From: Propionibacterium ruminifibrarum
GTDB lineage: Bacteria; Actinomycetota; Actinomycetes; Propionibacteriales; Propionibacteriaceae
Assembly: GCF_900289195.1 (NCBI RefSeq)
Contig: NZ_OMOH01000012.1
Coordinates: 39,260-71,259, forward strand
Direction: 5' to 3'
DNA length: 32,000 nucleotides
Positions 2,732-32,000 of the stretch are shown here, piece by piece. Numbering within the stretch: the stretch's first letter is position 1; every line of letters begins with the position of its first letter. Made by a program: the position numbers and the translations under genes. The notes below the pieces were generated by a model, which was given only the letters and a program-made list of their open reading frames with translations, made no database searches and was not told the origin of the DNA.

Positions 2732-3951
2732 TGTCGCAGAGGAATGGAGCTGTTGCCGTGGCCGAACCGATGAGCCCTGGCGCCGAGGCGGTGGGCAACG
2801 CCATCGAGACCGTTGCCTCGCATCTGCACCCGAGGGTCTCGTGGAACCTCGATGACCATCCCGTACCCACCGGCCGCGAGGAGGTCTGGCGGTTCACCCC
2901 GGTCGACGCGGTGAAGGGGCTCCTCACCAGTGGTCCCACCGGCATCGAACTCGACTGCGAGCTCAGGCTGCCCGCCGGCGTGACCGCCGGGTTCATCGAG
3001 GGCGACGCCGTGCGCGCGGCAGCCGTCGAGCCCCCGGCCGACCGCACCTCGGCCGTCGCCGCCGCCAACACGGACCGGGCGCGCCTCGTGCAGGTGCCCG
3101 CCGGTCTCGAACTGGACGAGCCCATCGAGCTCAACTTCACCGGCACCGGCGTCGACGGCTTCGCCTACGGGCAGACGATCATCGAGGTCGGCGCCCATGC
3201 CACGGCCCAGATCCTGCTGCGCTACGAGGGTTCGGCCCAGGTCGCGGACAAGATCGACGTGCGGGTCGGTGAGGGGGCCCGCCTCGACCTGGTGACCCTG
3301 CAGGACTGGGCGCCGGACGCCGTGCACGTCGGACAGTCCTCCCTGCTCGTCGGGCATGACGCCACGGTCCGCACCGTGCAGGCCTCGCTCGGCGGGGCGG
3401 TCACCAGGATGCTCGAGCGCGCCAGCTACGAGTCCTCGGGCGGTGAGCTCGAGCAGTTCGGCCTCTACTTCGTCGATTCGGGCCGCCACGTCGAGCACCG
3501 TCTGTTCGTCGACCACAACCAGCCGCTGAGCCGCTCGAACATCGACTACCGCGGGGCCCTGCAGGACAAGGGCTCACTCGGCGTGTGGGTGGGTGACGTG
3601 CTCATCCGCAAGGAGGCCGAGGGCATCAGCACGTACGAGGCCAACAAGAACCTGCTGCTCACCGAGGGCGCCCGGGCCGAGTCGATTCCGAACCTCGAGA
3701 TCGCCACCGGTGACATCGAGGGCGCGGGCCACTCGTCCACCACCGGTCGATTCGACGACGAGCAGCTGTTCTACCTGCGCAGCCGGGGCATACCCGAGGA
3801 CGAGGCCCGGCGCCTGGTCGTCCAGGGCTTCTTCGTGGAGATCGTCCGCCGGATCGGCATCCCCGAGGTCGCCGAGCGACTCATCGCCGTCGTCGAGCGC
3901 CAGCTGGACGCCATCGCCCCGGACTGGGGCGCCCAGGAGCCGGCCTCGTGA
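2731..3951 (+). CDS. sufD: Fe-S cluster assembly protein SufD
   Basis: The ATG at 2731 overlaps the sufB stop (TGATG). The C-terminal region ...NLLLTEGARAESIPNLEI...HSSTTGRFDDEQLFYLRSRGIPEDEARRL is SufB/D family, and it sits between sufB and sufC. Confidence 0.9.
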   Translation: MSQRNGAVAVAEPMSPGAEAVGNAIETVASHLHPRVSWNLDDHPVPTGREEVWRFTPVDAVKGLLTSGPTGIELDCELRLPAGVTAGFIEGDAVRAAAVEPPADRTSAVAAANTDRARLVQVPAGLELDEPIELNFTGTGVDGFAYGQTIIEVGAHATAQILLRYEGSAQVADKIDVRVGEGARLDLVTLQDWAPDAVHVGQSSLLVGHDATVRTVQASLGGAVTRMLERASYESSGGELEQFGLYFVDSGRHVEHRLFVDHNQPLSRSNIDYRGALQDKGSLGVWVGDVLIRKEAEGISTYEANKNLLLTEGARAESIPNLEIATGDIEGAGHSSTTGRFDDEQLFYLRSRGIPEDEARRLVVQGFFVEIVRRIGIPEVAERLIAVVERQLDAIAPDWGAQEPAS

Positions 3952-4060
3952 ACCCGACACGTCTCATACCGCACATTCCCACACCCATGTACCCAGTTCG
4001 CGCCGAGGACGCCCCGGTTCTCGTCGGCATCGAACGCCCCGTGAAGGAGAACTGAAGAAG

Positions 4061-4810
4061 ATGGCTGAACTCGTCATCAAGGATCTGCATGTCGATGTCG
4101 ACACCGAGAATGGCCCCAAGGAGATCCTCAAGGGTGTCGACCTGACCGTCAGGGACGGTGAGGTGCACGCCATCATGGGCCCCAACGGCTCCGGCAAGTC
4201 GACCCTGGCCTACGCCATCGCCGGCCACCCGAAGTACACCATCACCCAGGGGTCGGTGACGCTCGACGGCGTCGAGCTGTCCGATCTGCCCGTCGACGAG
4301 CGCGCCCGCGCCGGCCTGTTCCTCGGCATGCAGTACCCGGTCGAGGTTCCCGGCGTCTCGATGGCCAATTTCCTGCGCACCGCCAAGACGGCTCTTTCCG
4401 GTGAGGCCCCCAAGGTCAGGACCTGGCCCAAACAGGTCAACGAGGCCCTGACCGTCATGGACCTGACCAGCGACTTCTCCGAACGCTCCGTCAACGAGGG
4501 TTTCTCCGGCGGCGAGAAGAAGCGCGGCGAGATCGCCCAGCTCGAACTGCTCGATCCGCGGGCCGCCATTCTCGACGAGATCGACTCCGGTCTCGACATC
4601 GACGCCCTGCGGGTCGTCTCGGCCGGCATCGAACGGTTCGCCAAGAAACCCGACAAGCTGGTGCTGCTCATCACGCACTACACGCGCATCCTGCGCTACG
4701 TGCACCCCGACCGCGTCCACGTCTTCGTGGACGGTCGGGTCAAGGTCTCCGGCGGCCCCGAGCTCGCCGACAACCTCGAGGAGCGGGGCTACGAGCAGTA
4801 TGCGAAGTGA
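4061..4810 (+). CDS. sufC: Fe-S cluster assembly ATPase SufC
   Basis: The start MAELVIKDLHV follows a GAAGGAGA RBS. It has Walker A GPNGSGKST, the signature FSGGEKKR and Walker B LDEIDSGLD. Confidence 0.95.
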   Translation: MAELVIKDLHVDVDTENGPKEILKGVDLTVRDGEVHAIMGPNGSGKSTLAYAIAGHPKYTITQGSVTLDGVELSDLPVDERARAGLFLGMQYPVEVPGVSMANFLRTAKTALSGEAPKVRTWPKQVNEALTVMDLTSDFSERSVNEGFSGGEKKRGEIAQLELLDPRAAILDEIDSGLDIDALRVVSAGIERFAKKPDKLVLLITHYTRILRYVHPDRVHVFVDGRVKVSGGPELADNLEERGYEQYAK

Positions 4811-6053
4811 CGTCGACGTCGAGGCGATCCGCCGCGACTTCCCGATCCTGGGACGGCAGGTGGGGCCCTACCCCCTCACCTACCTGGACAGTGCGAACAC
4901 CTCCCAGAAGCCCCTCAGCGTCATCGAGGCGCTGACCAGCCACTACCGTGAGCACAACGCCAATGTCGCCCGCGCCATGCACGTGCTCGGCGCCGAGTCG
5001 ACGGCGGGTTATGAGGGTGCTCGCGCGAAGGTCGCCGGCTTCATCGGGGCGAAGGACCCCGCGGAGGTCGTCTTCACCAAGAACGCCTCGGAAGCTCTCA
5101 ACCTGGTGGCGAACACTCTCGGGAACCGGCTGGGGCCCGGTGACGAGGTCGTCATCTCGGTGATGGAGCACCACTCGAACCTCATCCCGTGGCAGATGGT
5201 GTGCGAACGCACCGGGGCCACGTTGCGCTGGTTCGACATCACCGACGAGGGCCGTCTCGACCTCGAGGCGGCCGAACGGGACGGGCTCATCAACGAGCGC
5301 ACCAGGATCGTCTCGCTGGCCTGGGTCTCCAACGTGCTGGGCACCGTCAACCCCATCGCGCGCATCGCCGAGCAGGCCCACGCCGTCGGCGCGGTCATGG
5401 TGGCCGACGGCTCCCAGGGGGTGCCCCAGCTGCCCACGGACGTGTCCGAACTCGGCGTCGACCTGCTGGCCTTCACCGGCCACAAGATGCTGGGACCGAC
5501 CGGCGTGGGGGTGCTGTGGGGCAGGCGCGCCCTGCTCGACGAGTTGCCGCCCTTCCTGGGCGGCGGCGAGATGATCGGCGTCGTCACCATGGAGGGCGCC
5601 ACCTGGGCCGACGTGCCGCACAAGTTCGAGGCCGGCACCCCACCGATCGCCCAGGCCGTCGGTCTCGGCGCCGCCGTGGACTACCTCGCGAACGTCGGCA
5701 TGGAACAGGTCGCCGCCCACGAGCACGAGATCACCGAGTACGCGCTGGCCCGGCTCGGCGAGATCCCCGCCGTGCACGTCATGGGGCCGACCACGGCCGT
5801 CGAGCGTGGGGGAGCGATCAGCTTCACCGTCGACGACGTGCACCCGCACGACCTCATGCAACTGCTCGACTCACGGGGCGTCGCGGTGCGCGGCGGACAC
5901 CACTGCGCCGAACCACTGCACCGGCGCCTCGGTGTGCAGAGTTCGGCTCGGGCATCCGGGTATCTTTACACGACGAAGGCCGAGATCGACGCCCTCTGCG
6001 AGGCCGTCGTCTGGGCCCACGATTTCTTCACCGGGAAGCTGAGAGGCCGCTGA
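4800..6053 (+). CDS. sufS: Cysteine desulfurase SufS (class V aminotransferase, group II)
   Basis: Contains YLDSANTSQKP, the PLP-Lys region FTGHKMLGPTG, and RGGHHCAEPL with the active-site Cys. It overlaps the sufC stop by 11 nt. Confidence 0.9.
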   Translation: MRSDVDVEAIRRDFPILGRQVGPYPLTYLDSANTSQKPLSVIEALTSHYREHNANVARAMHVLGAESTAGYEGARAKVAGFIGAKDPAEVVFTKNASEALNLVANTLGNRLGPGDEVVISVMEHHSNLIPWQMVCERTGATLRWFDITDEGRLDLEAAERDGLINERTRIVSLAWVSNVLGTVNPIARIAEQAHAVGAVMVADGSQGVPQLPTDVSELGVDLLAFTGHKMLGPTGVGVLWGRRALLDELPPFLGGGEMIGVVTMEGATWADVPHKFEAGTPPIAQAVGLGAAVDYLANVGMEQVAAHEHEITEYALARLGEIPAVHVMGPTTAVERGGAISFTVDDVHPHDLMQLLDSRGVAVRGGHHCAEPLHRRLGVQSSARASGYLYTTKAEIDALCEAVVWAHDFFTGKLRGR

Positions 6054-18408: not shown

Positions 18409-18945
18409 TCAGCTGTGGAAGATGACGTTCTTGTAGGTGAAGTCCGGGGCCACCTCCAAGACCAGGTCGGCCGGGTCGTTGACGCCGAAGGCGATCTGGA
18501 ACTGCACCTCACGGCCCGGCAGGAGCGAGGTGGACGGGCTGTCGCCGAGCTGCCCGGAGTCGTACACCTGGCTGGCCTCCTGGTTCCCTGACTGGAGCGT
18601 CGCGTAGAACAGGCTCGGGTCCCAGTTCTCGCTCGTGCCGTTGACGATGCGCACGGTGAACACGACGAAATCGCTGTAGCCATCGGAGCCGATCGCGTAC
18701 TCGCCGGGGGTGAAGGGCTCGGGTGCGCTCACCTCGATCGCCAGTCCGTCGTCCCAGGTGTATGCGGTGCCGAAGGTGGCGTCGGTGCCCTGCGTCGTGC
18801 CAGAGGAGTCCTGGGCGGGTTCGCTCGCCGATCCCGCGTTGACTCCGGCCGGTGCGCTGTCCGAGTGGCTGGCCTGCACTGTGCTGCACGCCGTCATGGT
18901 CAACGCGGCGAGACAGAGGCCGAGCCCTGCGATCTTCTTCATCAT
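18409..18945 (-). CDS. Secreted lipoprotein (DUF4352-like beta-sandwich suspected)
   Basis: The signal peptide and lipobox MMKKIAGLGLCLAALTMTAC are followed by a Ser/Ala/Gly-rich linker and a beta-rich domain. Confidence 0.7.
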   Translation of the reverse strand: MMKKIAGLGLCLAALTMTACSTVQASHSDSAPAGVNAGSASEPAQDSSGTTQGTDATFGTAYTWDDGLAIEVSAPEPFTPGEYAIGSDGYSDFVVFTVRIVNGTSENWDPSLFYATLQSGNQEASQVYDSGQLGDSPSTSLLPGREVQFQIAFGVNDPADLVLEVAPDFTYKNVIFHS

Positions 18946-19041
18946 GGTGACTCCTTGATCGGAACAGATGTGGTGCCGGTCATGAGCTCACCGGCGGTGT
19001 GACTCAACTGTCGACCAGACCGTTGACAGCCACAACATGAG

Positions 19042-19067
19042 TGACTGATAAGGCCCCTTATCGGTCA
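19042..19067. promoter_or_regulatory. Near-perfect 12-2-12 palindrome in the promoter region of the R-M operon (candidate operator)
   Basis: TGACTGATAAGG cc CCTTATCGGTCA has 11 of 12 complementary positions. It lies 69-94 nt upstream of the ATG at 19136, in a locally AT-richer divergent intergenic region. A TTGACA is present at 19023-19028. Confidence 0.4.
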
Positions 19068-19135
19068 TTCAATGAAAAAGTGAAACAGTGCGATCTAGGC
19101 TTGGGGCACCGCGAACACAGGAGCACGGAGGCACG

Positions 19136-21066
19136 ATGAACGGTCTTTCCCTCGGTGACGTGGCCCGGCTGGCGCGCGTCCGGCGTCCGGTCGTGTCGAT
19201 GTGGCTCAAACGGCACAAGGACGGCCTGCCCTTCCCCGAGCAGGACGCCGAAGGCCGTGTCGACGCCGACGAGCTCGTCGACTGGCTCGAGGCCACCGGT
19301 CGGGGCAACAACCCCGATGCCCGCGCCGAGGTGGCACTTCACAAGACGCTCACCCCGGGGGTCCCGGTCGAAGAACTCGAGGCGGTCCTCACCCTGCTTG
19401 CCGCCCGGGCCGTCACCGGTGTCGACGTTGTCGGCCTCGACCGTGACGACCTGCTCGACCGCGTGGAGGAACTCGACCCCGATGACGAGTGGCTGCTCGA
19501 CGAGACCGAACGGTGCTGGACGCCCGAACTCGCCGCCCGGGCCGATGCCGTCGCCGACGCCGCATGGAATGACGCCGCGGCCTACGAACTGCTCCACGGG
19601 CACCATCTCGCTCGTGGGGAGGCGACACGGCTCGCCGAACCCCTGGTGCGGCTGCTCGCCTCCACCGCACAGTCCATGCTGGACGACACGGGCCTGCTCG
19701 TCGATGTGCGGGGCAGCTGCTGCGATGTCGTCGTCGCGCTCGCAGCGGACGAGGAGCACGAGATGCCCGGGCTGCTGCTCGTCGCCGGCGACCTCGACGG
19801 GCTGCGCCCGATGCGCAGGCGGCTCGCGGTGCACGGGCTGAGCCCCCTGGTGGCCCGGCTCGACGAGGACTGGGCGCCACCGGCCGGTTCGGTCGTCCTG
19901 GTTCGGCTGTCCGATGCCTCGCCGGACGGACTCGACCTGCTCGACCGGGTCTCGCTGCAGTTGGGCGAGCAGGTGAGCCTGCTCGCCGTCGGCCCCTCGT
20001 CCCTGCTGGTCGACCCGCTCAGTGACACGACGGCTACGAGGCGCGACGAGTTGCTGCGCTCGGGCGTGGTCCGCGCCGTCGTCCAGCTCCCGGCGGGCGT
20101 GCTGCGGGGCGGCAGGGGCCGAACGGCCCTGTGGCTGTTGCGGGGAGGATCGGGGCAGGGGCCTCGTGGCGTCGTGCGGGTCGGCGATCTGTCCGGGCGT
20201 CGGTTCGACGCGGCTGTCCAGCAGGGGCTGCTCGATGACCTGCTCGCCAGCGCCGAGGCCTCCGGCTCGCATGTGTTCTCGGTGCTGCGTCCCGTGGCCA
20301 GGGCGCACCTGGTAGCCGGCCGGGGCCCTCTCGTGACGCCGGAGCGCGTCACCGTCCCGGTCATCGGGGCCACGCCGAGGCAGGACGCCGCACGCATGCA
20401 GCAGCTCTACGACTCGCTCGCCCAGGTGTTGCCGCCCTTCGGGAAGGGTTTCGATGTGGCCGTCGCGGACGACGACGTGCTGAGGGTCGAACGCATCTCA
20501 CTCGGCGCCGCTCTCGTGCGCCGCGGGGGAGAGACGTTGCTGAGGCTGCGCAAGGGGCGTCGTCTTCCCGAACTGGCGTCCGGCGAGTTGAGGCGGTGGA
20601 GGGCCGAGGACGTCGCGGCCGGTGCGCCCTCGCGGGTCGACAGGCTGGCGCTGACCGGGGCCGTGCCCGACCACGAGCTGACCGAGCCGGGCGACGTCGT
20701 CTTCACCGTGAGTCCGCGGCCCGCCGCCGTCGTCGACCGCAGCGGCGGTGCCGTGGTCGCCTATCCGGCGCGGGTCCTGAGGGTGACCGATCCGCAGCGG
20801 AGGCTGTCGGCGTCGGCCATCGCCGCGGTGATCAACGCCCGGGGTTCGGGGGACAGGGCCTGGCGCGGCTGGCTCGTACCGGTACGGGCCGTCGGTGCCG
20901 GGGACCCGGAGGAGTTCCTGACACACTTGGAGGGCTGGCGGGCCCTGCTGGAGCAGTGGAAGGCCCAGATCGACGAGCTGGGGGCCATGGTGATCGACTC
21001 GGCGCTGTCCGGGGCGGTCACCATCGGGGCGCGCGATGACGACAGGAACAACGAGGAAGGCCGCTG

Positions 21067-21067
<1 letters not shown>
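19136..21067 (+). CDS. HTH-domain protein with a degenerate N6-adenine-methyltransferase-like core and a TRD-like C-terminus (643 aa); first gene of the type I R-M operon
   Basis: ATG 19136 follows a GGAG RBS. The N-terminus LSLGDVARLARVRRPVVSMWLKR is MerR/excisionase-type HTH. The middle region parallels the adjacent HsdM segment by segment, but motif I is DVRGSCCD (versus DPCCGSGG) and motif IV is VRLSDAS (versus ANPPFNIS). The C-terminus parallels an HsdS target-recognition domain plus helix. Its stop overlaps the hsdM ATG (TGATG). Confidence 0.55.
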
Positions 21068-22736
<1,669 letters not shown>

Positions 22737-22737
<1 letters not shown>

Positions 22738-23912
22738 TGAGACTTGATCAAATTTGTACCCATATCGTTGACTGTGAGCATAAGAGTGCCCCGATTACTC
22801 CAGGTGGTGGGTTTTTTGCGGTCGGGACGCCGGCTATGCAAGGCAACGTCATTACTTACTCGGAGGCTCGCGAGATATCTGCAGAAACATTTGATCTGTG
22901 GACCCAGCGTCTCAAGCCCGAGAAAGGTGATCTACTTTTTGCTCGGGAAGCTCCAGTTGGTCCCGTTGTGATTATTCCTGCTGCGCTCAATGTTGCGCCA
23001 GGGCAAAGAACGGTTTTACTTCGCCCTGATCCGAGACTGGTTGATTCAAAATTTCTGTATTATAAAATTTCAAGTCCCGGGGTACAGAATAGCATTATGA
23101 ATTTTGCCATGGGGTCCACGGTGGCTCACATGAATGTTGTGGATGTGCGATCACTAGACCTTCAACTCCCATCTCTGGGTGAGCAGCGGGCAATTGCAGA
23201 GGTGCTGGGGGCTCTGGATGACAAGATCGCCGTAAATCGACGGCTTGTTGAGTCGATGGAAAGACTTCTCCGAGCTGAGTATCAAAAAAATATTGCCTCT
23301 AATGATGCTCCGAAGGTGCCATTATCTGATGTGGTGGAACTCAATCCTAGGCGCTTTATAAAAAATGAAGTGGCTCCTCGTATTCCCATGCAGTCACTTC
23401 CCTCTCCTGGTATGACAGTTGATCACATCACCTTCGAGAAGCCTAATGGTGGTGTCCGGTTTATGAATGGTGATACTATCTTGGCTCGCATCACGCCGTG
23501 TCTTGAGAATGGGAAAACGGCGTACATAGCTTGTCTGCAAGAAAATGAGGTGGGTTTTGGTTCAACCGAATACATTATCATGCGATCGCGAAATGGATAT
23601 CCTCTTGTGCTGACCTATTTCATTGCAACTGATGCAAGATTCAGGTCTGCCGTGATTCGACGCATGGTTGGAAGTTCGGGTCGTCAGAGGGTAAAGGCCT
23701 CGGATATTGAAGATCTCCCTGTTTTTCTGAATGGTGATCATGATGCGATGATGATTTTTGGGGAGCAGAGTGAAAAACGGATTATCTTGATGCAGAATCT
23801 GTCGGCGGAGTCCCGCACCCTCGCCTCGCTCCGCGACACGCTCCTGCCGGCCCTCATGAATGGCACCCTGCGCGTCAAGGACGCCGAGAAGCAGGTGGGG
23901 GAGGTGTTGTGA
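22737..23912 (+). CDS. hsdS: Type I restriction-modification system specificity subunit HsdS (two TRDs)
   Basis: Two TRD-plus-conserved-helix units are present (LPSLGEQRAIAEVLGALDDKI..., and C-terminal LASLRDTLLPALMNG). TRD1 starts IVDCEHKSAP. Its ATG overlaps the hsdM stop. The sequence is AT-rich except for the last ~110 nt. Confidence 0.9.
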
Positions 23913-26900
23913 TGATCACCGAGGCGCAACTCGAGGACAGCCTGCTCGACTGGCTCGGCGACCTGGGATGGGAACCCGGCACCGGGGCAGAACTGGAGTC
24001 CCAGCGGGCCACGCTGGGCGACCTTGTGCTGACCGGGGACTTCGTCGAGACGCTGCGGCTGCTCAACCCGTCCGTGCCCGACCAGTACCTGCGAGAGGCG
24101 GCCGCCGACATGGTCAGGGCCCGCTCCCAGGACGCGCCGGCCGAGAACAGGGACTTCCACGTCCTGCTCGTCCACGGCTACCGGGGCCTCACCTACGTGG
24201 ACACCAACGGCCGCGAGCAGATCCCCACCATCCGCCTGCTCGGCGCGCCGGAGCAGAACCGATACCGGGCCGTGCGGCAGGTGCGGCTCCGCCAGGGCGA
24301 CAACAGCCGTCGTCTCGACGTGGTGCTCTACGTCAACGGGCTTCCCCTGGTGGTCGTCGAACTCAAGCAGGCGGGCACGAGGAACGCCACCATCGCCAAG
24401 GCACACGCCCAGCTCGGCGCCTATCTCGCCGAGTTCCCGGCGGCCTTCCGCCCGGTCGTCGCCACCGTCGTGAGCGACGGCATCAACGCCCGCTACGGCA
24501 CGCCGTTCACCCGGCTCAACCACTACAGCCCGTGGAACGTCGACGAGGACGGCGCGCCCAGGCCGGCCGACGGCGAGCAGCTGCTCGAGCTGGAGAACCT
24601 CGCCCACGGGCTGCTGGAACCGGCCCGCCTGCTCGACATGGTCCGCAATTTCACGGCCTTCGACGAGACCGACGAGGGGTTGATCAAGCGCATCGCCAAA
24701 CCCCACCAGTACTTCGCCGTGCGCAAGGCGATCGACAGCACACTGGCGGCGCTGGGAAGCAACGGCAAGGCCGGGGTCGTGTGGCACACGCAGGGCTCGG
24801 GCAAGTCGATGGAGATGGAGCTCTACGCCAATCTCGTCCTCACGCACCCGCGCATGCACAACCCGACGATCGTCGTGATCACCGACCGCAACGAGCTCGA
24901 CGGTCAGCTGTACGACACCTTCGCCCGCTCAACGCTGCTGCCCGATCAGCCCAGGCAGATCAAACGCCGCTCCGAGCTGCGCAGCGAGCTCTCCGGCCGG
25001 GTCAGCGGGGGCATCTACTTCACGACCCTTCAGAAGTTCGGTCGTACCGCCTCCGAGCAGGACGCCGGTCACGCGCACCCGCTGCTCACCGACCGCCGCA
25101 ACGTCATCGTCATCGTCGACGAGGCCCATCGCAGCCACTACGACGACCTCGACGGCTACGCCCGGCACCTGCGCGACGCCCTGCCCAATGCCACACTCAT
25201 CGCGTTCACCGGCACGCCCATCAACGAGACGGACCGCAACACTCGCGAGGTGTTCGGCGACTACGTCGACATCTACGACCTGTCACGGGCCGTCACCGAC
25301 GGCGCCACCGTGCCCGTCTACTTCGAGCCCCGCCTCATCGAGGTGCGGCTCGATGATGACATGAGCGCCGAGAAACTCGATGAACTCGCCGACGAGCAGA
25401 CCTCCGGCCTCGACGACGAGGCGCGCGAGCGGGTCGAGCGCTCCGTGGCCGAACTCAACGCGATCTACGGCGCCCCCGAGCGCATCGACGCCCTGGCACG
25501 CGACATCGTCGAGCAGTGGGAGCGGCGCCGCGGGGCCATGACCGAGTTCTTGGCCCCCACCGGGCCCGACGAGAACCCGGACCCGCACGGCAAGGCCCTC
25601 GTCGTCTGCGCCACCCGCGAGATCTGCGCGCGGCTCTACGCCAGGATCGTCGAACTGCGCCCCGGCTGGCACTGCGACCAGGACGACCGGGGCCTCGTCA
25701 AGGTCGTCTACTCGGGTAGCCCCTCCGACCCCGAGCCGATCCGTGACCATGTGCGCCGCGACTCGCAGAACAAGGCGATCAAGAACCGGCTCCGTGACGT
25801 GGACGACGAACTCGAACTCGTCATCGTCAAGGACATGCTGCTCACCGGTTTCGACGCCCCGCCCCTGCACACCCTCTTCCTCGACCGGCCCCTCAAGGGC
25901 GCCCTGCTCATGCAGACGCTCGCCCGCGTCAACCGCACCTTCCGGGGCAAGCGGGACGGGCTGCTCGTGGCCTACGCGCCGTTGACCGAGAACCTCAACA
26001 AGGCCCTGCGGGAGTACACGGCGACCGACCAGGCGACCCGGCCCGTCGGGCGGGACAGCGACGAGGCCGTCCGAGTCACCGTGGAACTCGTCGAGGCCCT
26101 GCGCGTACTGCTGGCCGGCCACGACTGGCGCACCACGGCGACCAGCGGGGCGAGGGACGCCGGCCTGCGGGCCGTCGGCGAGACCGTCGAGTACCTGCGC
26201 TCCCCGGCCACCCCCGGCAACCAGGCCGAGCAGGAGGGCCAGACGCTCGGCGAACGCTTCCGCGCGCTGTCCGGCCGACTCGCCCGCATGTGGGCGCTGG
26301 CGGGCGGGGCCGAGAAACTCTCCGAGATCGCCACGGAGGTGCGCTTCTACGAGGAGGTGCGCGTGTGGATGGCCAAGCTCGACGCGCGCCAGCGCGAGGC
26401 GAGCGGCCAGCCCGTGCCAGAGGAGATCGTGCGCGTCCTGCGTGGGGCGGTGGCCCAGGCCACCGCTGCCGGCGACATCACCGATCTGTACGAGGCGGCC
26501 GGGCTGCCGAGGCCCTCCCTGCAGGAGCTCGACACTCAGACGCTCGACCAGATGCAGCAGGCCCCCAACCGGCACCTGGCGGTCGAGGCGCTGCGTGATC
26601 TGCTGGTGAAGGAGGCCGAGGCGGTGACGCGGAACAACGTCGTGCGCCGCAAGACCTTCAGCGAACGCATCAGCGAACTCATGATCCGCTACACGAACCA
26701 GCAGATCACCGCGGCCGATGTCATCTACGAGCTCGGCAGGATCGCCGAGGAGGTCAGGGGCGAGGCCGATCGCGGCACGAGCTTCGACCCGCCACTGAGC
26801 CACGACGAACTTGCCTTCTACGACGCGGTGAGCCAGAACGACTCGGCAGTGCTCGCCCAGGGCACCGACGTGCTGGCCCAGATCGCCCGCGAGCTCGTCA

Positions 26901-27094
26901 CGGTCATGCGCCGCGACACCCGCACGGACTGGACGCGGCGTCCGGAGGTGCAGGCGAAACTGAGGGCCAGCGTCAAACGGCTGCTGCGCCGCTACCACTA
27001 CCCGCCGGACAAGCAGAAGGGCGCGGTCGAGCTGGTCATCGAGCAGATGGAGACACTGGCGCCGAATTATGCGAGGGGGGAAGATTTGCTGTGA
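23909..27094 (+). CDS. hsdR: Type I restriction enzyme endonuclease/translocase subunit HsdR
   Basis: The N-terminal nuclease-type domain is followed by SF2 helicase motifs: TQGSGKS (Walker A), DEAHRS (DEAH box), and MLLTGFDAP...QTLARVNR. The protein is 1061 aa. GTG 23909 or ATG 23912 overlaps the hsdS stop. Confidence 0.95.
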   Translation: MMITEAQLEDSLLDWLGDLGWEPGTGAELESQRATLGDLVLTGDFVETLRLLNPSVPDQYLREAAADMVRARSQDAPAENRDFHVLLVHGYRGLTYVDTNGREQIPTIRLLGAPEQNRYRAVRQVRLRQGDNSRRLDVVLYVNGLPLVVVELKQAGTRNATIAKAHAQLGAYLAEFPAAFRPVVATVVSDGINARYGTPFTRLNHYSPWNVDEDGAPRPADGEQLLELENLAHGLLEPARLLDMVRNFTAFDETDEGLIKRIAKPHQYFAVRKAIDSTLAALGSNGKAGVVWHTQGSGKSMEMELYANLVLTHPRMHNPTIVVITDRNELDGQLYDTFARSTLLPDQPRQIKRRSELRSELSGRVSGGIYFTTLQKFGRTASEQDAGHAHPLLTDRRNVIVIVDEAHRSHYDDLDGYARHLRDALPNATLIAFTGTPINETDRNTREVFGDYVDIYDLSRAVTDGATVPVYFEPRLIEVRLDDDMSAEKLDELADEQTSGLDDEARERVERSVAELNAIYGAPERIDALARDIVEQWERRRGAMTEFLAPTGPDENPDPHGKALVVCATREICARLYARIVELRPGWHCDQDDRGLVKVVYSGSPSDPEPIRDHVRRDSQNKAIKNRLRDVDDELELVIVKDMLLTGFDAPPLHTLFLDRPLKGALLMQTLARVNRTFRGKRDGLLVAYAPLTENLNKALREYTATDQATRPVGRDSDEAVRVTVELVEALRVLLAGHDWRTTATSGARDAGLRAVGETVEYLRSPATPGNQAEQEGQTLGERFRALSGRLARMWALAGGAEKLSEIATEVRFYEEVRVWMAKLDARQREASGQPVPEEIVRVLRGAVAQATAAGDITDLYEAAGLPRPSLQELDTQTLDQMQQAPNRHLAVEALRDLLVKEAEAVTRNNVVRRKTFSERISELMIRYTNQQITAADVIYELGRIAEEVRGEADRGTSFDPPLSHDELAFYDAVSQNDSAVLAQGTDVLAQIARELVTVMRRDTRTDWTRRPEVQAKLRASVKRLLRRYHYPPDKQKGAVELVIEQMETLAPNYARGEDLL

Positions 27095-27259
27095 TCATCA
27101 GGAATTACGGAGCTAGAGTCGGTGATTTATACAGGTTCTCGAATGATTCAGCTGTCGCTGCTTCCGATTCAATGTGAAGGTTCGTCTAACTCAGATCCGC
27201 AGTAAATAAAGAGTATATGATGTCATTATTAACTCATTTTGTATGATTGGAGTTCTGCA

Positions 27260-28153
27260 ATGTTGGCGTACCGTAGTTCTTTTCATGTTTCGCAGCCCGT
27301 TGAAGAAGCATGGAGGACTGTCTCTTCGACGATGGTTAACTGGGCTGAGCGTAAACATCGCAAACAGCTAGGTCCAAAGGGTCTCTACGCACTGGAACCT
27401 AATTCTTCAATCGCCCTTAAATCGGGAATCAAGTTTACGATTATTGATTCGATTCAGCAGCCAGGTGATCGAATCTTTGGGTTTCAATCGGTCGAGCCAG
27501 ATGGCGATCACAAATGGACGAGTAAAGTTTTGGTTGCCGGTAATCCAAAACGAGATGATGAATCGGTTGTATCAATAATTATTGACGCGCCTGCAGATAA
27601 GCATGATCCCCTTCGTCCTAAATATGCAGAAGTTCCTAGGTTTGTGCGAAGTATGTTAGATCAGATGGATTGCGATGATTGTGGAATTCATCTGGGGAAT
27701 AAGCCTCGACAGCTAGATGTTGCCCTGATACCCACTCTTATTCGTGAACTGAAGGAAGATGATCATCACGGCTTAGTTCTTGTAGCGGGAACGCCGGCTG
27801 ACTTTCCATTTGAGCCGTGGAAGGAATTCATTGCTGACACGACCAAAAATACTGTAGGTCAAAGTGCAACGTACGTTTTGGATGTTGAAGCTACTAACTA
27901 TTTCAACCAGCACGTGTCGAAATACCACAGGGTAGATCCAGGATCTCTTCGGAGCTTTGTTCCAGGGGCAGACTTTGACGATCCCCTAGACGGAAAACGC
28001 CATAGGTTTATAACAGCTAAAACGCTGGCTGATGATCAGCTGAGAAAAGCAGCATCCAGCATCATTACGCGTCGTTCTCGGGCGTTCACGAACTCGCGAC
28101 CAATTGATAGAAAAACTCGTCGATACAATGAGGCTTATTCACAGCTCCAATGA
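27260..28153 (+). CDS. Hypothetical protein (297 aa), AT-rich orphan gene immediately downstream of hsdR
   Basis: ATG 27260 follows GGAG (27248-27251) with 8-nt spacing. It is a long uninterrupted ORF in AT-rich DNA, where random ORFs are short. I recognise no motif in MLAYRSSFHVSQPVEEAWRT... Confidence 0.6.
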   Translation: MLAYRSSFHVSQPVEEAWRTVSSTMVNWAERKHRKQLGPKGLYALEPNSSIALKSGIKFTIIDSIQQPGDRIFGFQSVEPDGDHKWTSKVLVAGNPKRDDESVVSIIIDAPADKHDPLRPKYAEVPRFVRSMLDQMDCDDCGIHLGNKPRQLDVALIPTLIRELKEDDHHGLVLVAGTPADFPFEPWKEFIADTTKNTVGQSATYVLDVEATNYFNQHVSKYHRVDPGSLRSFVPGADFDDPLDGKRHRFITAKTLADDQLRKAASSIITRRSRAFTNSRPIDRKTRRYNEAYSQLQ

Positions 28154-28288
28154 ATCAATCCATGACTAGGGGTTTCATCACCCTCTGGGTCTCTGTGAAT
28201 AAGCCTCAATGAGATATTCGATCAAAAAATTCGAGGAATTGATTCCCTGGCTCGATCTAGTACCAATGTTGATGGTGCTACTAAAAAA

Positions 28289-29230
28289 ATGGAGCCAGTG
28301 GCAGTGCAAGTCAAAGCAAATGCTGCTCACAAGTTGTCTCCGAAGTCAAATAATAGTGCTAGCGTCAAAGAGCTTACACCGCTCCAAAAAGATCTTGACC
28401 AAGTTCGAATGCAACTCGCCGAAGAACGGCAGAAGAATTAAGAACTGCGATTCAAATTCGAATATGCACGGTTTCTTCTGGAACAGCGCGCGGAAGAGCT
28501 TAACACGTTAGAAGACCGGCTGAAGGTGGTAGTTTCTGAACGAGATGAACACGAACTCAACTATACGGTAGTCTTAGAAGAAAAAGATGATGCGCTTACG
28601 CGCGCAGAAAAATCTGAGGCTCGAGTGTCGTATTTGTTGTCAAGATTACAGCAATCGGAACTGACAGCTGATGATTGGGGCTGGCAGTCTAGTGTTGAAG
28701 AAGTAAAAACCCCATCAAGTTGGACCGAGCTTGTCGAATGGGCTAATTCTGGATATTTAGAAAAGTGTTTGCCGTGGCTTTGTTTTACGTGTGATTGGGA
28801 TCGTGCGTTAGATCTTGATGACCAAAATGAGTGCGCTTGGATAGCTACTACTTGGGATATAATCAGAACTCTCAATGATTATGGGCGCGCCTGTCAAGAC
28901 GAGAAAATATCTGTGACTAGTCTCTATAATTATCTCAAGGAGCCTCCTTCTGGGTATAGATCTGTTCCGCTGAGGCGTTATAAAGCAACCGAATCTGAAT
29001 CTGTTACAAATCGAAAACGCTATCGAATAGAGCGCATCTTCCCGGTTCCGCAAGAAATTGAAGGTCGTGATGAGAATGGCATGATATATATGGATAAACA
29101 CTTTGTTATTGCCAAAGCTGGAATGATATCACCACGTCTATACTGTCATGATGGCACTGGTAATCGTAGGTATGGCAAAGTCGTCATTGGCTATATTGGC
29201 CGCCATTTGACTAATGATCAGACGAATTAA
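28289..29230 (+). pseudogene. Coiled-coil protein gene interrupted by an in-frame TAA (28439-28441); unknown C-terminal globular domain
   Basis: The same frame reads MEPVAVQ...TPLQKDLDQVRMQLAEERQKN * ELRFKFEYARFLLEQRAEELNTLEDRLKVVVSERDEHE..., so heptad-like sequence continues across the stop. Downstream of the stop the only in-frame start is GTG 28526, which has no convincing RBS (track ORF 28526..29230). Confidence 0.5.
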
Positions 29231-29256
29231 ATATGGCCATGATGAAACAAAGAGAT

Positions 29257-30066
29257 TTATTTAGGGTGTAGGTGAATGTGATTCCGAGTATTGCAGTGAT
29301 GGTGTCGGGAGGCGTCTGTGGCGGGTTTTGAGAGTGTGCCAGGTTTTGAGATTGGCATGACCTGTTCGATCTGCCATCTGATTTTGTTGATGGCCCGGTT
29401 GTAGTTCTTGTGGGTTTCTGGTTTGGGTAGTCCGGCTGGTTTCTTGACGGGAGTTATCAGCCCTGTTCCGGCGTATCTTTTGTCTGCGATGTGCCGGATG
29501 AGAGGGCATCGGGGTGGATCATTGCTCGTGAGCTCACTGTTGGGGTGGAGGAGGCCTGATTCGGTGAGGGCCCGGGCGTCGTGGGTGCGGCCGGGTAGCG
29601 GGTCGGACACCCAGGCGAGGTGTCCGGTCAGGGTGCAGGCCACTTGGAGGTTGGCTCCGGTGGTGTGGTGTTTACCGGAGTAGAGTTCGGGCTTGTCGCG
29701 CCATGCCCAGCAGGGTATGAGGGTGCCGTCGATGATCAATTGGGTGTCCGGGTCGAGGCCGTCGGCGGTGGGGACGTTCTGTTCAAGGATGCCGGCGATC
29801 AGGGGTGTCCAGGCGGTCAGGACGCGTGAGACGGTGGGCTGGGAGATGCCGAAGAGTTCTGAGAGGGATTCTTGTTCGAGGTTGTGGCGTAGGCTGGCCA
29901 GGACGAGTCGGATGCTCTGGTAGGGGCCGAGCCTACGTGATCCGGCCGCTGGCAGGGCACCATTGACCGTTGCATGGATTTTCTGGCACAGGTCTTGTAT
30001 CTGAGTGTGGGTCAGTCGTGTGATAGCATGTGGCCTGCGGCCTGTCCCTTGATTGTTTCTTTTCAC
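29257..30066 (-). CDS. IS5-like DDE transposase (DDE_Tnp_4 type), probably frameshifted near its C-terminus
   Basis: It has an HTH (LSELFGISQPTVSRVL), then LIIDGTLIPC, YSGKHHTTGANLQV, IADKRYAG and NRAINKIRWQIEQV. The expected continuation (I)ANLKTWHTLKT... is found in another frame (track ORF 29261..29509), implying a 1-nt indel near 29355-29362. Confidence 0.7.
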   Translation of the reverse strand: MKRNNQGTGRRPHAITRLTHTQIQDLCQKIHATVNGALPAAGSRRLGPYQSIRLVLASLRHNLEQESLSELFGISQPTVSRVLTAWTPLIAGILEQNVPTADGLDPDTQLIIDGTLIPCWAWRDKPELYSGKHHTTGANLQVACTLTGHLAWVSDPLPGRTHDARALTESGLLHPNSELTSNDPPRCPLIRHIADKRYAGTGLITPVKKPAGLPKPETHKNYNRAINKIRWQIEQVMPISKPGTLSKPATDASRHHHCNTRNHIHLHPK

Positions 30067-30153
30067 ACATTAATCATCTCGGGACAGGCCGTCCCTTCGT
30101 CTTCAATGACACGCCTCATACGAGATCATCCAAAACCACTCGAACAAACCCTA
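29262..30153 (-). mobile_element. Small IS5-like insertion sequence (~0.9 kb, DDE_Tnp_4/HARBI1-type transposase)
   Basis: It is GC-richer than the surrounding AT-rich DNA. Its ends are TAGGGTGTAGG... (29262) and ...ACCCTA (30148-30153), imperfect inverted repeats sharing the terminal TAGGGT. It sits between two convergent genes. Boundaries are approximate. Confidence 0.55.
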
Positions 30154-30168
30154 TGAATGAGCCTCACT

Positions 30169-31101
30169 CTAGGGTGAATTTCTTGATTCCATGGCTCGCG
30201 ATGGGTCGGCAAACTGCTCGTCTGTGAGCGGTGGTCGATTTATTCCATATTCAGGATCATCATGCACATCGAATCCTGACGTATTTCGAATGAAGCGGTA
30301 AACGGGGCTTACGAGAACACATGAGGGAAGAATAAAATGTTTGACAAAAGGGTTGGATTCTGATTCTAGGCGAACGTAATACCGCCCCTTTGGCCCTCGG
30401 AAATAGTAAGGGCTCTCGCCTATTGGTTGAAAAATGCGCTCTATCAATGAGCTGATTTGTTGTATGGCTGTGAGCGCAGTTTCTCGTGCTTCGCCTGAAT
30501 CAAGTTCGGACTGATAATGGATAGCCGTGTTGCGCATCTTCATCAAAGCTCTGTACCCTCTCACTGTTTCATCATCGAAGATGCCCCATTCTCGTAAAGC
30601 ATCGATACACTTGTCCCACTTATTGATAGACTCCTTGCTTTTGACATACTTAGTTGCAGGGCAGTTTTTATATTTGTCCTCGTCTCTTAATGTGAGAACC
30701 AATTGGTTTAGGATTCTTTCGCCAAGCCCGCAGGCTCCTAGGAGTGCCGGATAATAGCACTGTGCAACAAAGGCGTCTCGAATCTGTTCTAGATAGATAC
30801 TATGAAGTGCGATAATCGACCAAGGGGCGTTGCCAAGATCAATGAAATTTTGAACTTTATGTCGATAATTATTAGCTCCGAAGTCATGGATTAGAGACTC
30901 CCTGATCTTGGCCTGATTTTCTTCCCATTGAGCCCTTATGAGTGGGGCACAATCCTCCTCAAGTGGAACAGTTAGACAGTGTGATCGTGTATCGAATGTC
31001 ATATTGACAGGGAGGAAACGGCGCGATCCATCATTGGGTCCCCGCTTGCGTCCGGGTTCAATCTTGACGGCTTGAGCTTTGTCATTGGTGAGATCTGTCA
31101 T
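30169..31101 (-). CDS. HEPN-motif protein (310 aa), candidate abortive-infection/RNase-type defence effector
   Basis: ATG 31101 follows an AGGAA RBS. The Rx4H motif RNTAIH (nt 30534-30517) lies in an alpha-helical context (YRALMKMRNTAIHYQSELDSGEARETALTAIQQISSLIERI). Upstream, YYPALLGACGLGERILNQLVL resembles helix 1 of HEPN domains. The gene is AT-rich. Confidence 0.6.
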   Translation of the reverse strand: MTDLTNDKAQAVKIEPGRKRGPNDGSRRFLPVNMTFDTRSHCLTVPLEEDCAPLIRAQWEENQAKIRESLIHDFGANNYRHKVQNFIDLGNAPWSIIALHSIYLEQIRDAFVAQCYYPALLGACGLGERILNQLVLTLRDEDKYKNCPATKYVKSKESINKWDKCIDALREWGIFDDETVRGYRALMKMRNTAIHYQSELDSGEARETALTAIQQISSLIERIFQPIGESPYYFRGPKGRYYVRLESESNPFVKHFILPSCVLVSPVYRFIRNTSGFDVHDDPEYGINRPPLTDEQFADPSRAMESRNSP

Positions 31102-31269
31102 TTTGAGTTCCTAAGATATTGATGCTTATCCATAGGACAAGCTTGGATCATTGTCAGTTGCCTTGCGTGGGGCGTGTCGCAGGAGGCGAAAGAGCGGTCC
31201 GCGCTGAGACAATTAATGCGTGGCCAAAACAATCAAAGAACAGACTGCATGCCATATGCTATCACGCGG

Positions 31270-32000
31270 CTAGCTGTAGTTGCGCATGACGTTGGTGATG
31301 CCGGTGGGGAGTCGTGTGGCGGGGGGCTGGTCTCGGCAGGCGGTGTGGGGTCGGTGGTAGTTGTAGTGGATGTTCCAGATGGCGACGGCTTGGGCTCGTT
31401 CGGTTTCTGAGTGGTAGGGGCGGGCGTAGAGAAGCTCCTCGGCCAGGATCCGGTTATAGCGCTCAACCTTGCCGTTGTGTCGTGGCGTGTAGGGCCGGGT
31501 CCGCTGATGGGTGATGCCCTGGGTTTTGAGTCGGGCGGTGAACAGTTCGCTGGTGTAACACGGCCCGTTGTCAGTAATCACGCGAGTGATCTCGGTGATG
31601 CCGTGGGCGGCGAAGAAAGCTTGCGCGTTGCGCCAAAACTCCAACACGGTGGCGGCTTTCTCATCGGTATGGGGTTCGGTATAGGCCAGCCAGGAGAACC
31701 CGTCGATTGCCGAGTGCAGGTAGGCGTAGCCGACCTTCTGCCGCGGGCCAGCCTTGCCGCGGCCGCGAGACCGCCAGCCCCCACCATCGAGGATCCGTCC
31801 GACCTTCTTCACATCCAGGTGGACCATGTGGCCCTTGTAGCGGGCAGTGATCTTGCCCGGCTTGCGCAACAGCTCGCCGTCGACATCAAACCAGCGGCGA
31901 CGATTCAACCCCAGCCGACGAAGCCAACGACCGACAGTGGCCTGAGAGATCTCGACGCCTGTGTCGGTGAGCTCGATCCAGATCAACCGCGCCGACCACT
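31270..32000 (-). CDS. IS481-family transposase (rve integrase core), N-terminus outside window
   Basis: HLDVKKVGRI...GYAYLHSAIDGFSWLAY...VITDNGPCYTS...RPYTPRHNGKVERYNRILAEE...YNYHRPHTA is typical of IS481/IS3-superfamily DDE integrases. The frame stays open to the window edge. The IS end probably lies between about 31150 and 31270. Confidence 0.85.
   Translation of the reverse strand, partial: WSARLIWIELTDTGVEISQATVGRWLRRLGLNRRRWFDVDGELLRKPGKITARYKGHMVHLDVKKVGRILDGGGWRSRGRGKAGPRQKVGYAYLHSAIDGFSWLAYTEPHTDEKAATVLEFWRNAQAFFAAHGITEITRVITDNGPCYTSELFTARLKTQGITHQRTRPYTPRHNGKVERYNRILAEELLYARPYHSETERAQAVAIWNIHYNYHRPHTACRDQPPATRLPTGITNVMRNYS

Follow-up and report, generated by a model that had tools for sequence, protein, structure and literature searches.

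The transcriptional control of type I restriction-modification (R-M) systems is poorly understood, and the few cases found are a C-protein homologue in Mycoplasma and RptR in Gammaproteobacteria. The former is encoded upstream of the type I hsd operon of Mycoplasma gallisepticum (PMC12707154), and the latter, a 79-amino-acid (aa) bZIP-like dimer that binds TAGCTA repeats, is an R-M system (RMS)-proximal repressor of type I R-M (PMC12255303). Among type II R-M systems, M.SsoII, M.Ecl18kI, M.EcoRII and M.MspI are dual-function repressors in which a helix-turn-helix (HTH) domain is combined with a methyltransferase (MTase; PMC12707154). In this paper we describe a protein, hereafter X, which is the 643-aa product of positions 19136-21067 (+) in a 32,000-nucleotide (nt) stretch of the Propionibacterium ruminifibrarum contig NZ_OMOH01000012.1 (the whole stretch is called the window in the following). 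X leads a type I operon of the order X-hsdM-hsdS-hsdR, it resembles a methylase fused to a target-recognition domain (TRD) that has lost its catalytic motifs, and it probably acts as a built-in regulator, undescribed so far, with a distribution across Actinobacteria.

Each of the described regulators shares some features with X and departs from it in others. In the M.SsoII-type proteins the HTH is likewise N-terminal and fused to an MTase, and it binds a palindromic operator in their own promoter region, by which R-M expression is set. These enzymes are, however, active C5-cytosine MTases and the only methylase of their type II systems, whereas X combines a gamma N6-adenine fold with a TRD, appears catalytically dead, carries a MerR-like HTH where theirs is Xre-like, and adds to a type I system that already has an intact HsdM and HsdS. 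C proteins resemble X in being encoded by the leading gene of the operon and in their presumed autogenous regulation via a palindromic operator near the promoter. By contrast, they comprise only ~80 aa with an HTH of the Xre type and recognise C-boxes, while X has 643 aa, an unrelated type of HTH and operator, and a whole pseudo-methylase; HTH_3 gave no significant match in the X family (one of 39 members, at E=0.2). With RptR, X has in common that a conserved regulator stands at the head of type I R-M loci together with a conserved binding site (putative in the case of X), and that the interval between hsdS and hsdR often harbours additional defence genes, but X has no similarity to RptR in sequence, fold, size or operator and occurs in a different phylum. 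X is thus outside the C proteins, RptR and the SsoII-type MTases, each of which differs in fold, size, operator or catalytic activity.

The closest structural counterparts are found among enzymes rather than regulators. The type IIG enzymes BpuSI and MmeI, as well as M.TaqI, M.BseCI, CamA and fused or minimal type I MTases (7eew), display the same order of MTase, TRD and (helix) as X; unlike X, they are active, possess intact motifs I and IV and have no N-terminal HTH, and those of type IIG additionally carry a nuclease domain. Half-HsdS proteins possess one TRD and one conserved helix per chain, and their dimers read symmetric bipartite sites; their TRDs diversify, and the site which they read is methylated together with an HsdM that is active. 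X likewise has one TRD and one conserved helix, and the palindrome GATAA-N6-TTATC upstream of its gene (see below) has the same half-site-N6-half-site format, but the TRD of X is conserved and the site invariant. Structurally, X belongs to the HsdM and HsdS superfamilies, yet it lacks their defining catalytic motifs and stays below their profile thresholds. A description of the protein or its operator was not found in the open-access literature, although absence there is not proof.

The X open reading frame (ORF) comprises 643 codons, with an ATG at 19136 and a TGA stop at 21065-21067. Judging from their profile matches (Table 1), its neighbours are bona fide HsdM, HsdS and HsdR. X and hsdM are joined by a TGATG overlap, and by coordinates hsdM and hsdS share 1 nt and hsdS and hsdR 4 nt, which bears out the translational coupling that had been read from this sequence before (hereafter the original prediction). 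The coupling of X to hsdM is widespread: the gap amounts to -1 nt in 45 of 72 loci, and in nearly all of the 72 it lies within +/-20 nt.

X is a member of a large family. A hidden Markov model (HMM) search of 1.84 billion representative proteins returned 1,832 clusters (counted at 50% identity) at E<=1e-3, 1,116 at <=1e-10 and 599 at <=1e-30, and the best 150 matches were all about full length. In data with one genome per species, relatives of X are encoded in 161 genomes; all of the 80 for which loci were listed belong to the Actinomycetota, with Propionibacteriales, Micrococcales (many Arthrobacter and Pseudarthrobacter), Rhodococcus, Nocardia, Pseudonocardiaceae, Kribbella, Nakamurella, Actinomyces and Cellulomonas being represented. 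The X module is also present on three conjugative Arthrobacter/Paenarthrobacter plasmids and one Streptomyces plasmid, where the protein is annotated as 'hypothetical protein'.

Linkage to type I genes is nearly complete in this family. Among genome, metagenome and plasmid loci with enough downstream sequence, hsdM lies directly 3' of X in 133 of 135, followed by hsdS and, 0-4 kb further, by hsdR. One exception (L086, a short contig) has an AbiEi antitoxin gene at 4152-4967 (AbiEi_1, 1e-20) in the usual place of hsdM; it overlaps the X stop by ATGA, and the contig ends before any hsdM could show. The other (L170) is a shortened X beside unrelated genes. The co-occurrence of X with hsdMSR in related genomes thus agrees with the original prediction, which had further called X a fixed fourth component of the system. 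This stronger claim holds in one direction, as X nearly always comes with hsdMSR; the converse was seen on a few plasmids, where X or an X-like gene was there every time. From this linkage and from the upstream sequence discussed below, X appears as a near-obligate fourth component of one type I lineage with an almost invariant 20-bp putative operator. As a side observation, gaps of 1-4 kb between hsdS and hsdR are common among X loci, and extra genes in this place encode HEPN, SLFN/AlbA_2-HATPase_c_4 and YhcG/DUF1016 nuclease proteins (L004/L005 13068-16105; L006 12859-13956). An hsdS-hsdR insertion hotspot has likewise been noted in Gammaproteobacteria (PMC12255303).

The 190 bp located 5' of X hold the inverted repeat TGAGTGACTGATAAGG/CCTTATCGGTCATTCA, which has a longer imperfect form at 19038-19071 and a core, GATAA-N6-TTATC, at 19047-19062. 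The window contains the exact core a single time, where chance alone would give 0.04 matches with <=1 mismatch, and the core was found again 5' of X in distant homologues: L001, L002, L003 and L008 contain one exact core each, always 5' of X. In 88 genome loci the core is exact in 81 and has one mismatch in six, at -75 to -155 from the X start codon, while the other 1.23 Mb of these loci hold one exact match. This first sample was partly biased to the Met22 variant of the HTH by one of two search patterns, and an independent metagenome sample of 54 loci was therefore drawn as a check; here the core is exact in 49 and has one mismatch in five. Combined over non-redundant loci, 135 of 154 have the exact core and 151 of 154 have it with <=1 mismatch. 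The consensus reads cTGATAAs-N4-sTTATCAg, with a spacer of G+C only and half-site centres 11 bp apart, i.e. one helical turn. Even the distant RPVVTTW...TGRAER clade, which is only 27-32% identical, keeps CTGATAAC-N4-GTTATCAG or the symmetric variant CTGGTAACCC/GGGTTACCAG. The original prediction had referred to the upstream palindrome and had proposed, as one of three roles, a sequence-specific controller of R-M expression; the near-invariance of the palindrome throughout the family lends strong new support to this proposal, and the evidence speaks neither for nor against the other two, a decoy or sensor for DNA mimics and a scaffold that alters HsdM/S/R stoichiometry.

Several observations bear on what the palindrome belongs to. 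The gene divergent from X differs by clade, being a lipoprotein gene in Propionibacteriales, one for a coiled-coil membrane protein in Arthrobacter and one for a ~470-aa protein in Pseudonocardiaceae and Kribbella; since these upstream genes are clade-specific, the palindrome belongs to the X operon. In the window, this place is taken by a 178-aa gene at 18409-18945 (-) with a lipoprotein-type signal (LTMTAC) and without a Pfam match, relatives of which (40-73% identity) adjoin X in Propionibacteriales loci. A divergent upstream gene as fifth conserved component of the system was considered and rejected, because conservation extends within clades only, and the 18409-18945 gene probably reflects clade synteny rather than a part of the system. 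Equally rejected was the palindrome as the target of the R-M system itself, the TRDs of HsdS being 19-28% identical among loci while the palindrome is invariant. A one-mismatch match to the core, GATATTGATGCTTATC at 31115-31130 within the low-G+C island at the end of the window, is probably due to chance because of its A+T-rich context.

A minority variant of the palindrome has G for A at half-site position 2, giving GGTAAC...GTTA(C/T)C in L006 (7893-7924), L090 (~2556-2579) and L167, in the last of which it is fully symmetric; the G variant does not follow residue 22 of the HTH. Covariation of this residue (Met/Thr) with GATAA/GGTAA was tried and rejected: GGTAA was present in the two Thr22 loci of the initial sample, but all ten Thr22 (RPVVSTW) metagenome loci keep GATAA, and both variants are present within the RPVVTTW clade.

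The position of the palindrome relative to a promoter can be outlined tentatively. A sigma-70 consensus scan upstream of X found no promoter, and a sequence logo of 78 loci, aligned with respect to the palindrome, displays a T-A-n-n-n-T preference (~0.46-0.50) at +48 to +53, to which the candidate -10 box of the window corresponds (Table 1). Weak as this signal is, a -10 box in this place would put the centre of the operator ~50-55 bp 5' of the transcription start, just 5' of the -35 region. A further signal in the logo, AnnnTA at -40, may reflect a clade bias of the upstream genes.

The architecture of X was derived from profile and fold searches. X has no match at E<=1 in Pfam (Methylase_S included), NCBIfam or PADLOC, and its sequence search against the PDB gave noise only; a word-indexed search yielded 53 homologous clusters, nearly all labelled hypothetical. 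An alignment of 39 homologues was the basis of a first profile and of an AlphaFold2 (AF2) model of full-length X (predicted local distance difference test, pLDDT, 89.1; predicted template modelling score, pTM, 0.76). The strands of the model follow the beta1-beta7 order that is canonical for class I MTases, and its Foldseek matches in the PDB are type I HsdM structures (7eew 9e-14, 3lkd 7e-13, 2okc 2e-9; also 3khk, EcoR124I and EcoKI) and single-chain enzymes with MTase and TRD (BpuSI 4e-11, PacII, M.BseCI, CamA and M.TaqI), at E-values of 9e-14 to 1e-6 for the former and 4e-11 to 1e-5 for the latter. From N- to C-terminus, X divides into a putative HTH, the HsdM_N-like domain, the MTase fold, a linker, the TRD and the HsdS-type helix (boundaries in Table 1).

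At the sequence level the similarity to HsdM is weak, with a best BLASTP segment of E=0.034 and E=0.1 for hhalign against six HsdM; the Pfam N6_Mtase threshold is not reached, since three of 39 relatives match (best E=0.005) and X does not. The 39-sequence profile retrieved the StySJI HsdM 2okc (E=6e-4) and, more weakly, EcoKI M from the PDB, and the 2okc match is limited to the region past motif IV. With larger locus-derived alignments, X 60-345 aligns to HsdM residues 38-401, i.e. the HsdM_N-like helical domain and the MTase core (E=3e-4). The segment-by-segment register against HsdM that had been laid out by eye was recovered identically by BLASTP and hhalign and independently by Foldseek, including the pairs VDVRGSCCD/DPCCGSGG, MRRRLAVHGL/AKMNLAIHGL, VLVRLSDA/FVMANPPF and VVQLPAGV...LWLL/MVALPEKL...LWFF. 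Similarly, the proposed C-terminal TRD with a conserved helix is confirmed by hhalign of X 440-630 against 71 HsdS (probability 91.9%, E=7e-7), which covers HsdS residues 8-190, i.e. TRD1 and the central conserved helix. The C-terminal helix of X is probably a dimerisation element.

The N-terminal domain was addressed separately. Its first 75 residues, modelled alone with AF2, gave a pLDDT of 92.8, and the Foldseek list for this model is dominated by MerR-family winged-HTH domains (root-mean-square deviation ~3 A over 52-56 residues), namely the DNA-binding domains of CarH, RacA, BldC, HiNmlR, SoxR, CadR and BmrR, several of which have been solved on DNA. The MerR/excisionase-like HTH of the original prediction is thus favoured by the fold search, with E-values of only 0.2-1.5 for the individual matches; Pfam HTH_17 was marginal, with two of 39 family members at E<0.1. 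The main family also shares two near-invariant motifs that belong to no recognised element for catalysis or DNA reading, TGRGNNP directly past the HTH (X residues 54-60, 19295-19315) and DPDD in the helical domain (residues 114-117, 19475-19486); the distant RPVVTTW clade has TGRAER in the place of the former.

Despite its fold, X lacks the residues required for methyl transfer. At the position of motif IV, HsdM reads A-N-P-P-F, X R-L-S-D-A and the family Q-(Y/F/L)-P-(S/A/D)-P; the pattern [DNS]PP[YFWH] was found nowhere in any of 84 family members, and the position of the catalytic N/D is occupied by Y, F, L or V. In motif I, X has VDVRGSCCDVV, with S-C-C-D where HsdM has G-S-G-G. The family consensus is FVDPTxGGSDLL, in which Asp-Pro is kept, the first Gly is present in many members and S mostly stands in for the second G; in 69 of 84 members the small residue that follows in the glycine loop is replaced by Asp. 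By contrast, the strand pair matching the DNA-facing motif of HsdM (RLPxGL...LW) is invariant or nearly so. The claim that both the S-adenosylmethionine (SAM) glycines and the NPPF tetrad are lost is hence correct for X itself and, with respect to the tetrad, for the whole family, but has to be qualified for motif I, which is less degenerate in most relatives. Because the tetrad is gone and an Asp sits in the glycine loop of motif I, it is very unlikely that X is a methyltransferase.

Conservation is distributed over X in an uneven way. Over 71 loci, the mean pairwise identity is 76% for HsdM, 40% for the whole of X and 29% for HsdS. Within X the HTH is the most conserved part (57.6%), followed by the TRD-like domain (42.8%), and X outside the HTH ranges at 33-43%. 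The genuine TRDs of HsdS from the same loci reach 27.8% and 19.1%, so that the TRD-like domain of X, unlike TRDs which determine specificity, is not hypervariable. These comparisons indicate that X is under purifying selection over its whole length, including the dead methylase/TRD body. The hsdS of the window has a low G+C content (0.51 over 23001-24000, compared with 0.64-0.69 in flanking genes), which together with the ~29% identity among loci fits a recent horizontal replacement of TRDs.

A relative from Corynebacterium sheds light on the possible origin of X. On the Corynebacterium glutamicum plasmid p48A (L089, NZ_CP014329.1), whose hsdM is 65% identical to that of the window, the position of X is taken by a 680-aa gene annotated as 'N-6 DNA methylase'. 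Its product (WP_061285298.1) has the same type of N-terminal HTH (LSLKDIAELAGVGRPAVSNWRAR...FPAP...WL), matches Pfam N6_Mtase at 2e-26 with the near-canonical motifs FDPTCGTSG and SEPPF, and possesses a textbook TRD and conserved region (IPLLSIEEQQKVV); compared with the X profile it scores a probability of 97% (E=3e-11). Its HTH and TRD are diverged from those of X, and the GATAA palindrome was not found in its upstream region. This protein may represent the ancestral state, in which activity is possibly retained and the operator is another one, and because of such a near-intact HTH-N6_Mtase-TRD protein in the position of X, the latter probably descends from an active fusion in which catalysis was lost subsequently. 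In the p48A stretch 2381-4877 we also observed a different direct repeat (AATGACATTCACG / AATGTCATTCACA) upstream in place of the palindrome, and a gene with an NYN domain (predicted RNase) directly 5' of the X relative.

How could these elements act together? In our judgement, X is probably the built-in transcriptional controller of its own operon, i.e. a dimeric, operator-binding autoregulator of X-hsdM-hsdS-hsdR, although its binding to the palindrome is inferred from co-conservation only. Two X chains would pair via their C-terminal conserved helices, as half-HsdS proteins do, and the dimer would place two identical DNA readers ~11 bp apart on the single palindrome cTGATAAs-N4-sTTATCAg just 5' of the operon promoter. 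Bound X would then set the transcription of the whole four-gene operon, its own gene included, for which we lean, by analogy, towards negative autoregulation as homeostatic control of a dangerous enzyme. The dead methylase/TRD body would most likely provide dimerisation and a surface for sensing or partner binding (e.g. of DNA, SAM or Hsd subunits). The GATAA half-sites are more likely read by the HTH pair than by the TRD pair: the HTH is the parsimonious reader, given that no other domain of X is as conserved, that its predicted fold is a MerR-type DNA-binding one and that the M.SsoII-type repressors, C proteins and RptR provide precedents. Alternatively, the TRD pair could be the reader or a co-reader, since the palindrome has the symmetric bipartite N6 format of a dimer with a single TRD per chain and the TRD of X is unusually conserved.

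A number of points weigh against a controller of this kind. None of the Foldseek matches to the isolated HTH reaches significance by its own E-value, and PDB sequences yielded nothing relevant to an N-terminal domain profile, so that the assignment as HTH rests on fold evidence and is the least secure element of the modelled architecture. As the covariation of residue 22 failed, the palindrome cannot be linked to the HTH in preference to the TRD, and a host factor instead of X could bind there. The candidate promoter is weak, and the operator appears to lie 5' of the -35 region instead of over the core promoter, which makes repression not obvious. Finally, conservation over the length of 640 aa and the coupling to hsdM exceed the needs of a simple repressor, which hints at an extra role in the R-M complex.

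Such a role is at the centre of the main alternative, which we consider unlikely, and which is compatible with X being a controller: X could primarily be a structural or regulatory subunit of the restriction complex, which as a dead M2S1-like dimer would bind HsdR, or would replace or compete with HsdM/HsdS. It would thus titrate or gate restriction, e.g. by delaying it while a new host genome is methylated, and the operator would be secondary. The HsdM assembly domains kept in X (HsdM_N-like domain and MTase core) together with its own TRD and conserved helix, the purifying selection outside the HTH, the conserved 1-nt coupling to hsdM and the near-obligate linkage to hsdMSR are in agreement with this idea, but it leaves the HTH and the near-invariant operator unexplained, and the partner HsdM looks complete alone. 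A related proposal, named in the original prediction too, is that X serves as a decoy or sensor for anti-restriction proteins that mimic DNA. Mimics such as Ocr and ArdA would be captured in the dead M2S1-like groove and thereby either sponged from the real enzyme or made to free X from the operator, which would boost R-M expression. X does have the fold of the surface that mimics target, its top Foldseek match 7eew is a complex of a type I MTase with Ocr, EcoR124I complexes with Ocr/ArdA are listed as well, and a TRD that is conserved instead of diversifying would fit a fixed ligand. This case is, however, purely circumstantial and the proposal improbable, because the matches to Ocr/ArdA complexes reflect homology to HsdM and not mimic binding, and a conserved operator explains a conserved TRD equally well. 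We regard with similar scepticism a further reading, in which a dead M2S1-like clamp would read the operator, whose half-site-N6-half-site format is that of a type I recognition sequence, via its conserved TRD pair and mimic the real methyltransferase. Whatever attacks or saturates type I enzymes (DNA mimics like Ocr and ArdA, perhaps also HsdR in free form) would then dislodge X from the operator as well, and expression of the R-M operon would be switched. If true, this would constitute a built-in anti-restriction sensor, a regulatory logic that is not known to have been described for any R-M system.

It could further be asked whether some unrelated regulator of the host binds the palindrome, or whether the latter is a structural part of the promoter, with X doing something else. 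The tie between X and palindrome is indirect, and the negative outcome for residue 22 speaks in the same direction. Nevertheless, the palindrome travels with X across many actinobacterial orders, conjugative plasmids and unrelated divergent neighbours and is essentially absent elsewhere in the loci, so that a host factor would need to be conserved across all hosts, and the Corynebacterium variant with its diverged HTH and TRD has no palindrome; this explanation seems a poor one. Least credible of all is that X works as a second DNA methyltransferase of the ordinary, active kind whose motifs happen to be unusual. The MTase fold is present, a partial motif I (DPTxGGSD) is kept in most members and the Corynebacterium relative has near-canonical motifs, but against this stand the absence of the catalytic tetrad from all 84 members of the family proper, the hydrophobic residue in place of the catalytic N/D, the Asp in the glycine loop and the sub-threshold matches to N6_Mtase.

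With a built-in controller as the preferred reading, X probably represents a new type of controller for autoregulated R-M, namely a pseudo-methylase/TRD fusion. In the course of its evolution, copies of the defence enzyme's own subunits (M and half of S) would have become joined to a DNA-binding domain, lost their activity and been retained as a module for regulation or sensing, and an apparently transitional form persists on p48A. The family is large, yet Pfam, NCBIfam and PADLOC hold no model for it and RefSeq labels it 'hypothetical protein'. Apart from annotation, X could have a bearing on how amenable Arthrobacter, Rhodococcus, Propionibacteria and Streptomyces are to genetic manipulation.

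Table 1. Features of the X-hsdM-hsdS-hsdR operon and its surroundings in the window
Feature	Position	Strand	Basis or remark
Conserved palindrome (putative operator), CTGATAAGG-CC-CCTTATCGG	19045..19064	.	inverted-repeat search
Candidate -10 box TAGGCT (TAnnnT type)	19096..19101	+	weak logo signal, 31 nt 3' of palindrome
Shine-Dalgarno GGAGG	19127..19131	+	4 nt 5' of X ATG, read from sequence
X residues 1-60, MerR/excisionase-like winged HTH, recognition helix RPVVSMWLKR	19136..19315	+	isolated-domain model and Foldseek
X residues 61-181, HsdM_N-like all-helical domain with conserved DPDD	19316..19678	+	AF2 model, hhalign
X residues 182-340, class I (gamma N6-adenine) MTase fold	19679..20155	+	degenerate motifs I (VDVRGSCCD) and IV (RLSDA), LPxG...LW strand pair kept
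X residues 341-445, linker of mixed helices/strands	20156..20470	+	AF2; 34.8% mean pairwise identity, less conserved part
X residues 446-585, HsdS-like TRD (TEPGDVVF...AVVD...PARVLR)	20471..20890	+	hhalign vs HsdS
X residues 590-625, long C-terminal helix aligned to HsdS central conserved (coiled-coil) region	20903..21010	+	AF2 helix 592-624, hhalign
X stop/hsdM start overlap TGATG	21064..21068	+	1 nt shared
hsdM, intact type I methyltransferase	21067..22737	+	Pfam HsdM_N 2e-25, N6_Mtase 8e-105; PADLOC MTase_I 2e-175
hsdS, specificity subunit	22737..23912	+	Pfam Methylase_S 1e-11; PADLOC Specificity_I 8e-68
hsdR, restriction/translocase subunit	23909..27094	+	TIGR00348 3e-142; PADLOC REase_I 2e-233
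HEC-07-like candidate defence gene	27239-28153		PADLOC 2e-9
NsnC-like ORF, weak	28526-29230		
DDE_Tnp_4 transposase	29257-30066	-	
HepT-like ORF, weak	30169-31101	-	
rve integrase	31270-31986	-	

Downstream of hsdR (27100-32000), the G+C content falls from about 0.69 to 0.44-0.60. With its candidate defence genes, transposase and integrase (Table 1), this region looks like a horizontally acquired island of defence genes and insertion sequences (IS) that adjoins the R-M operon.

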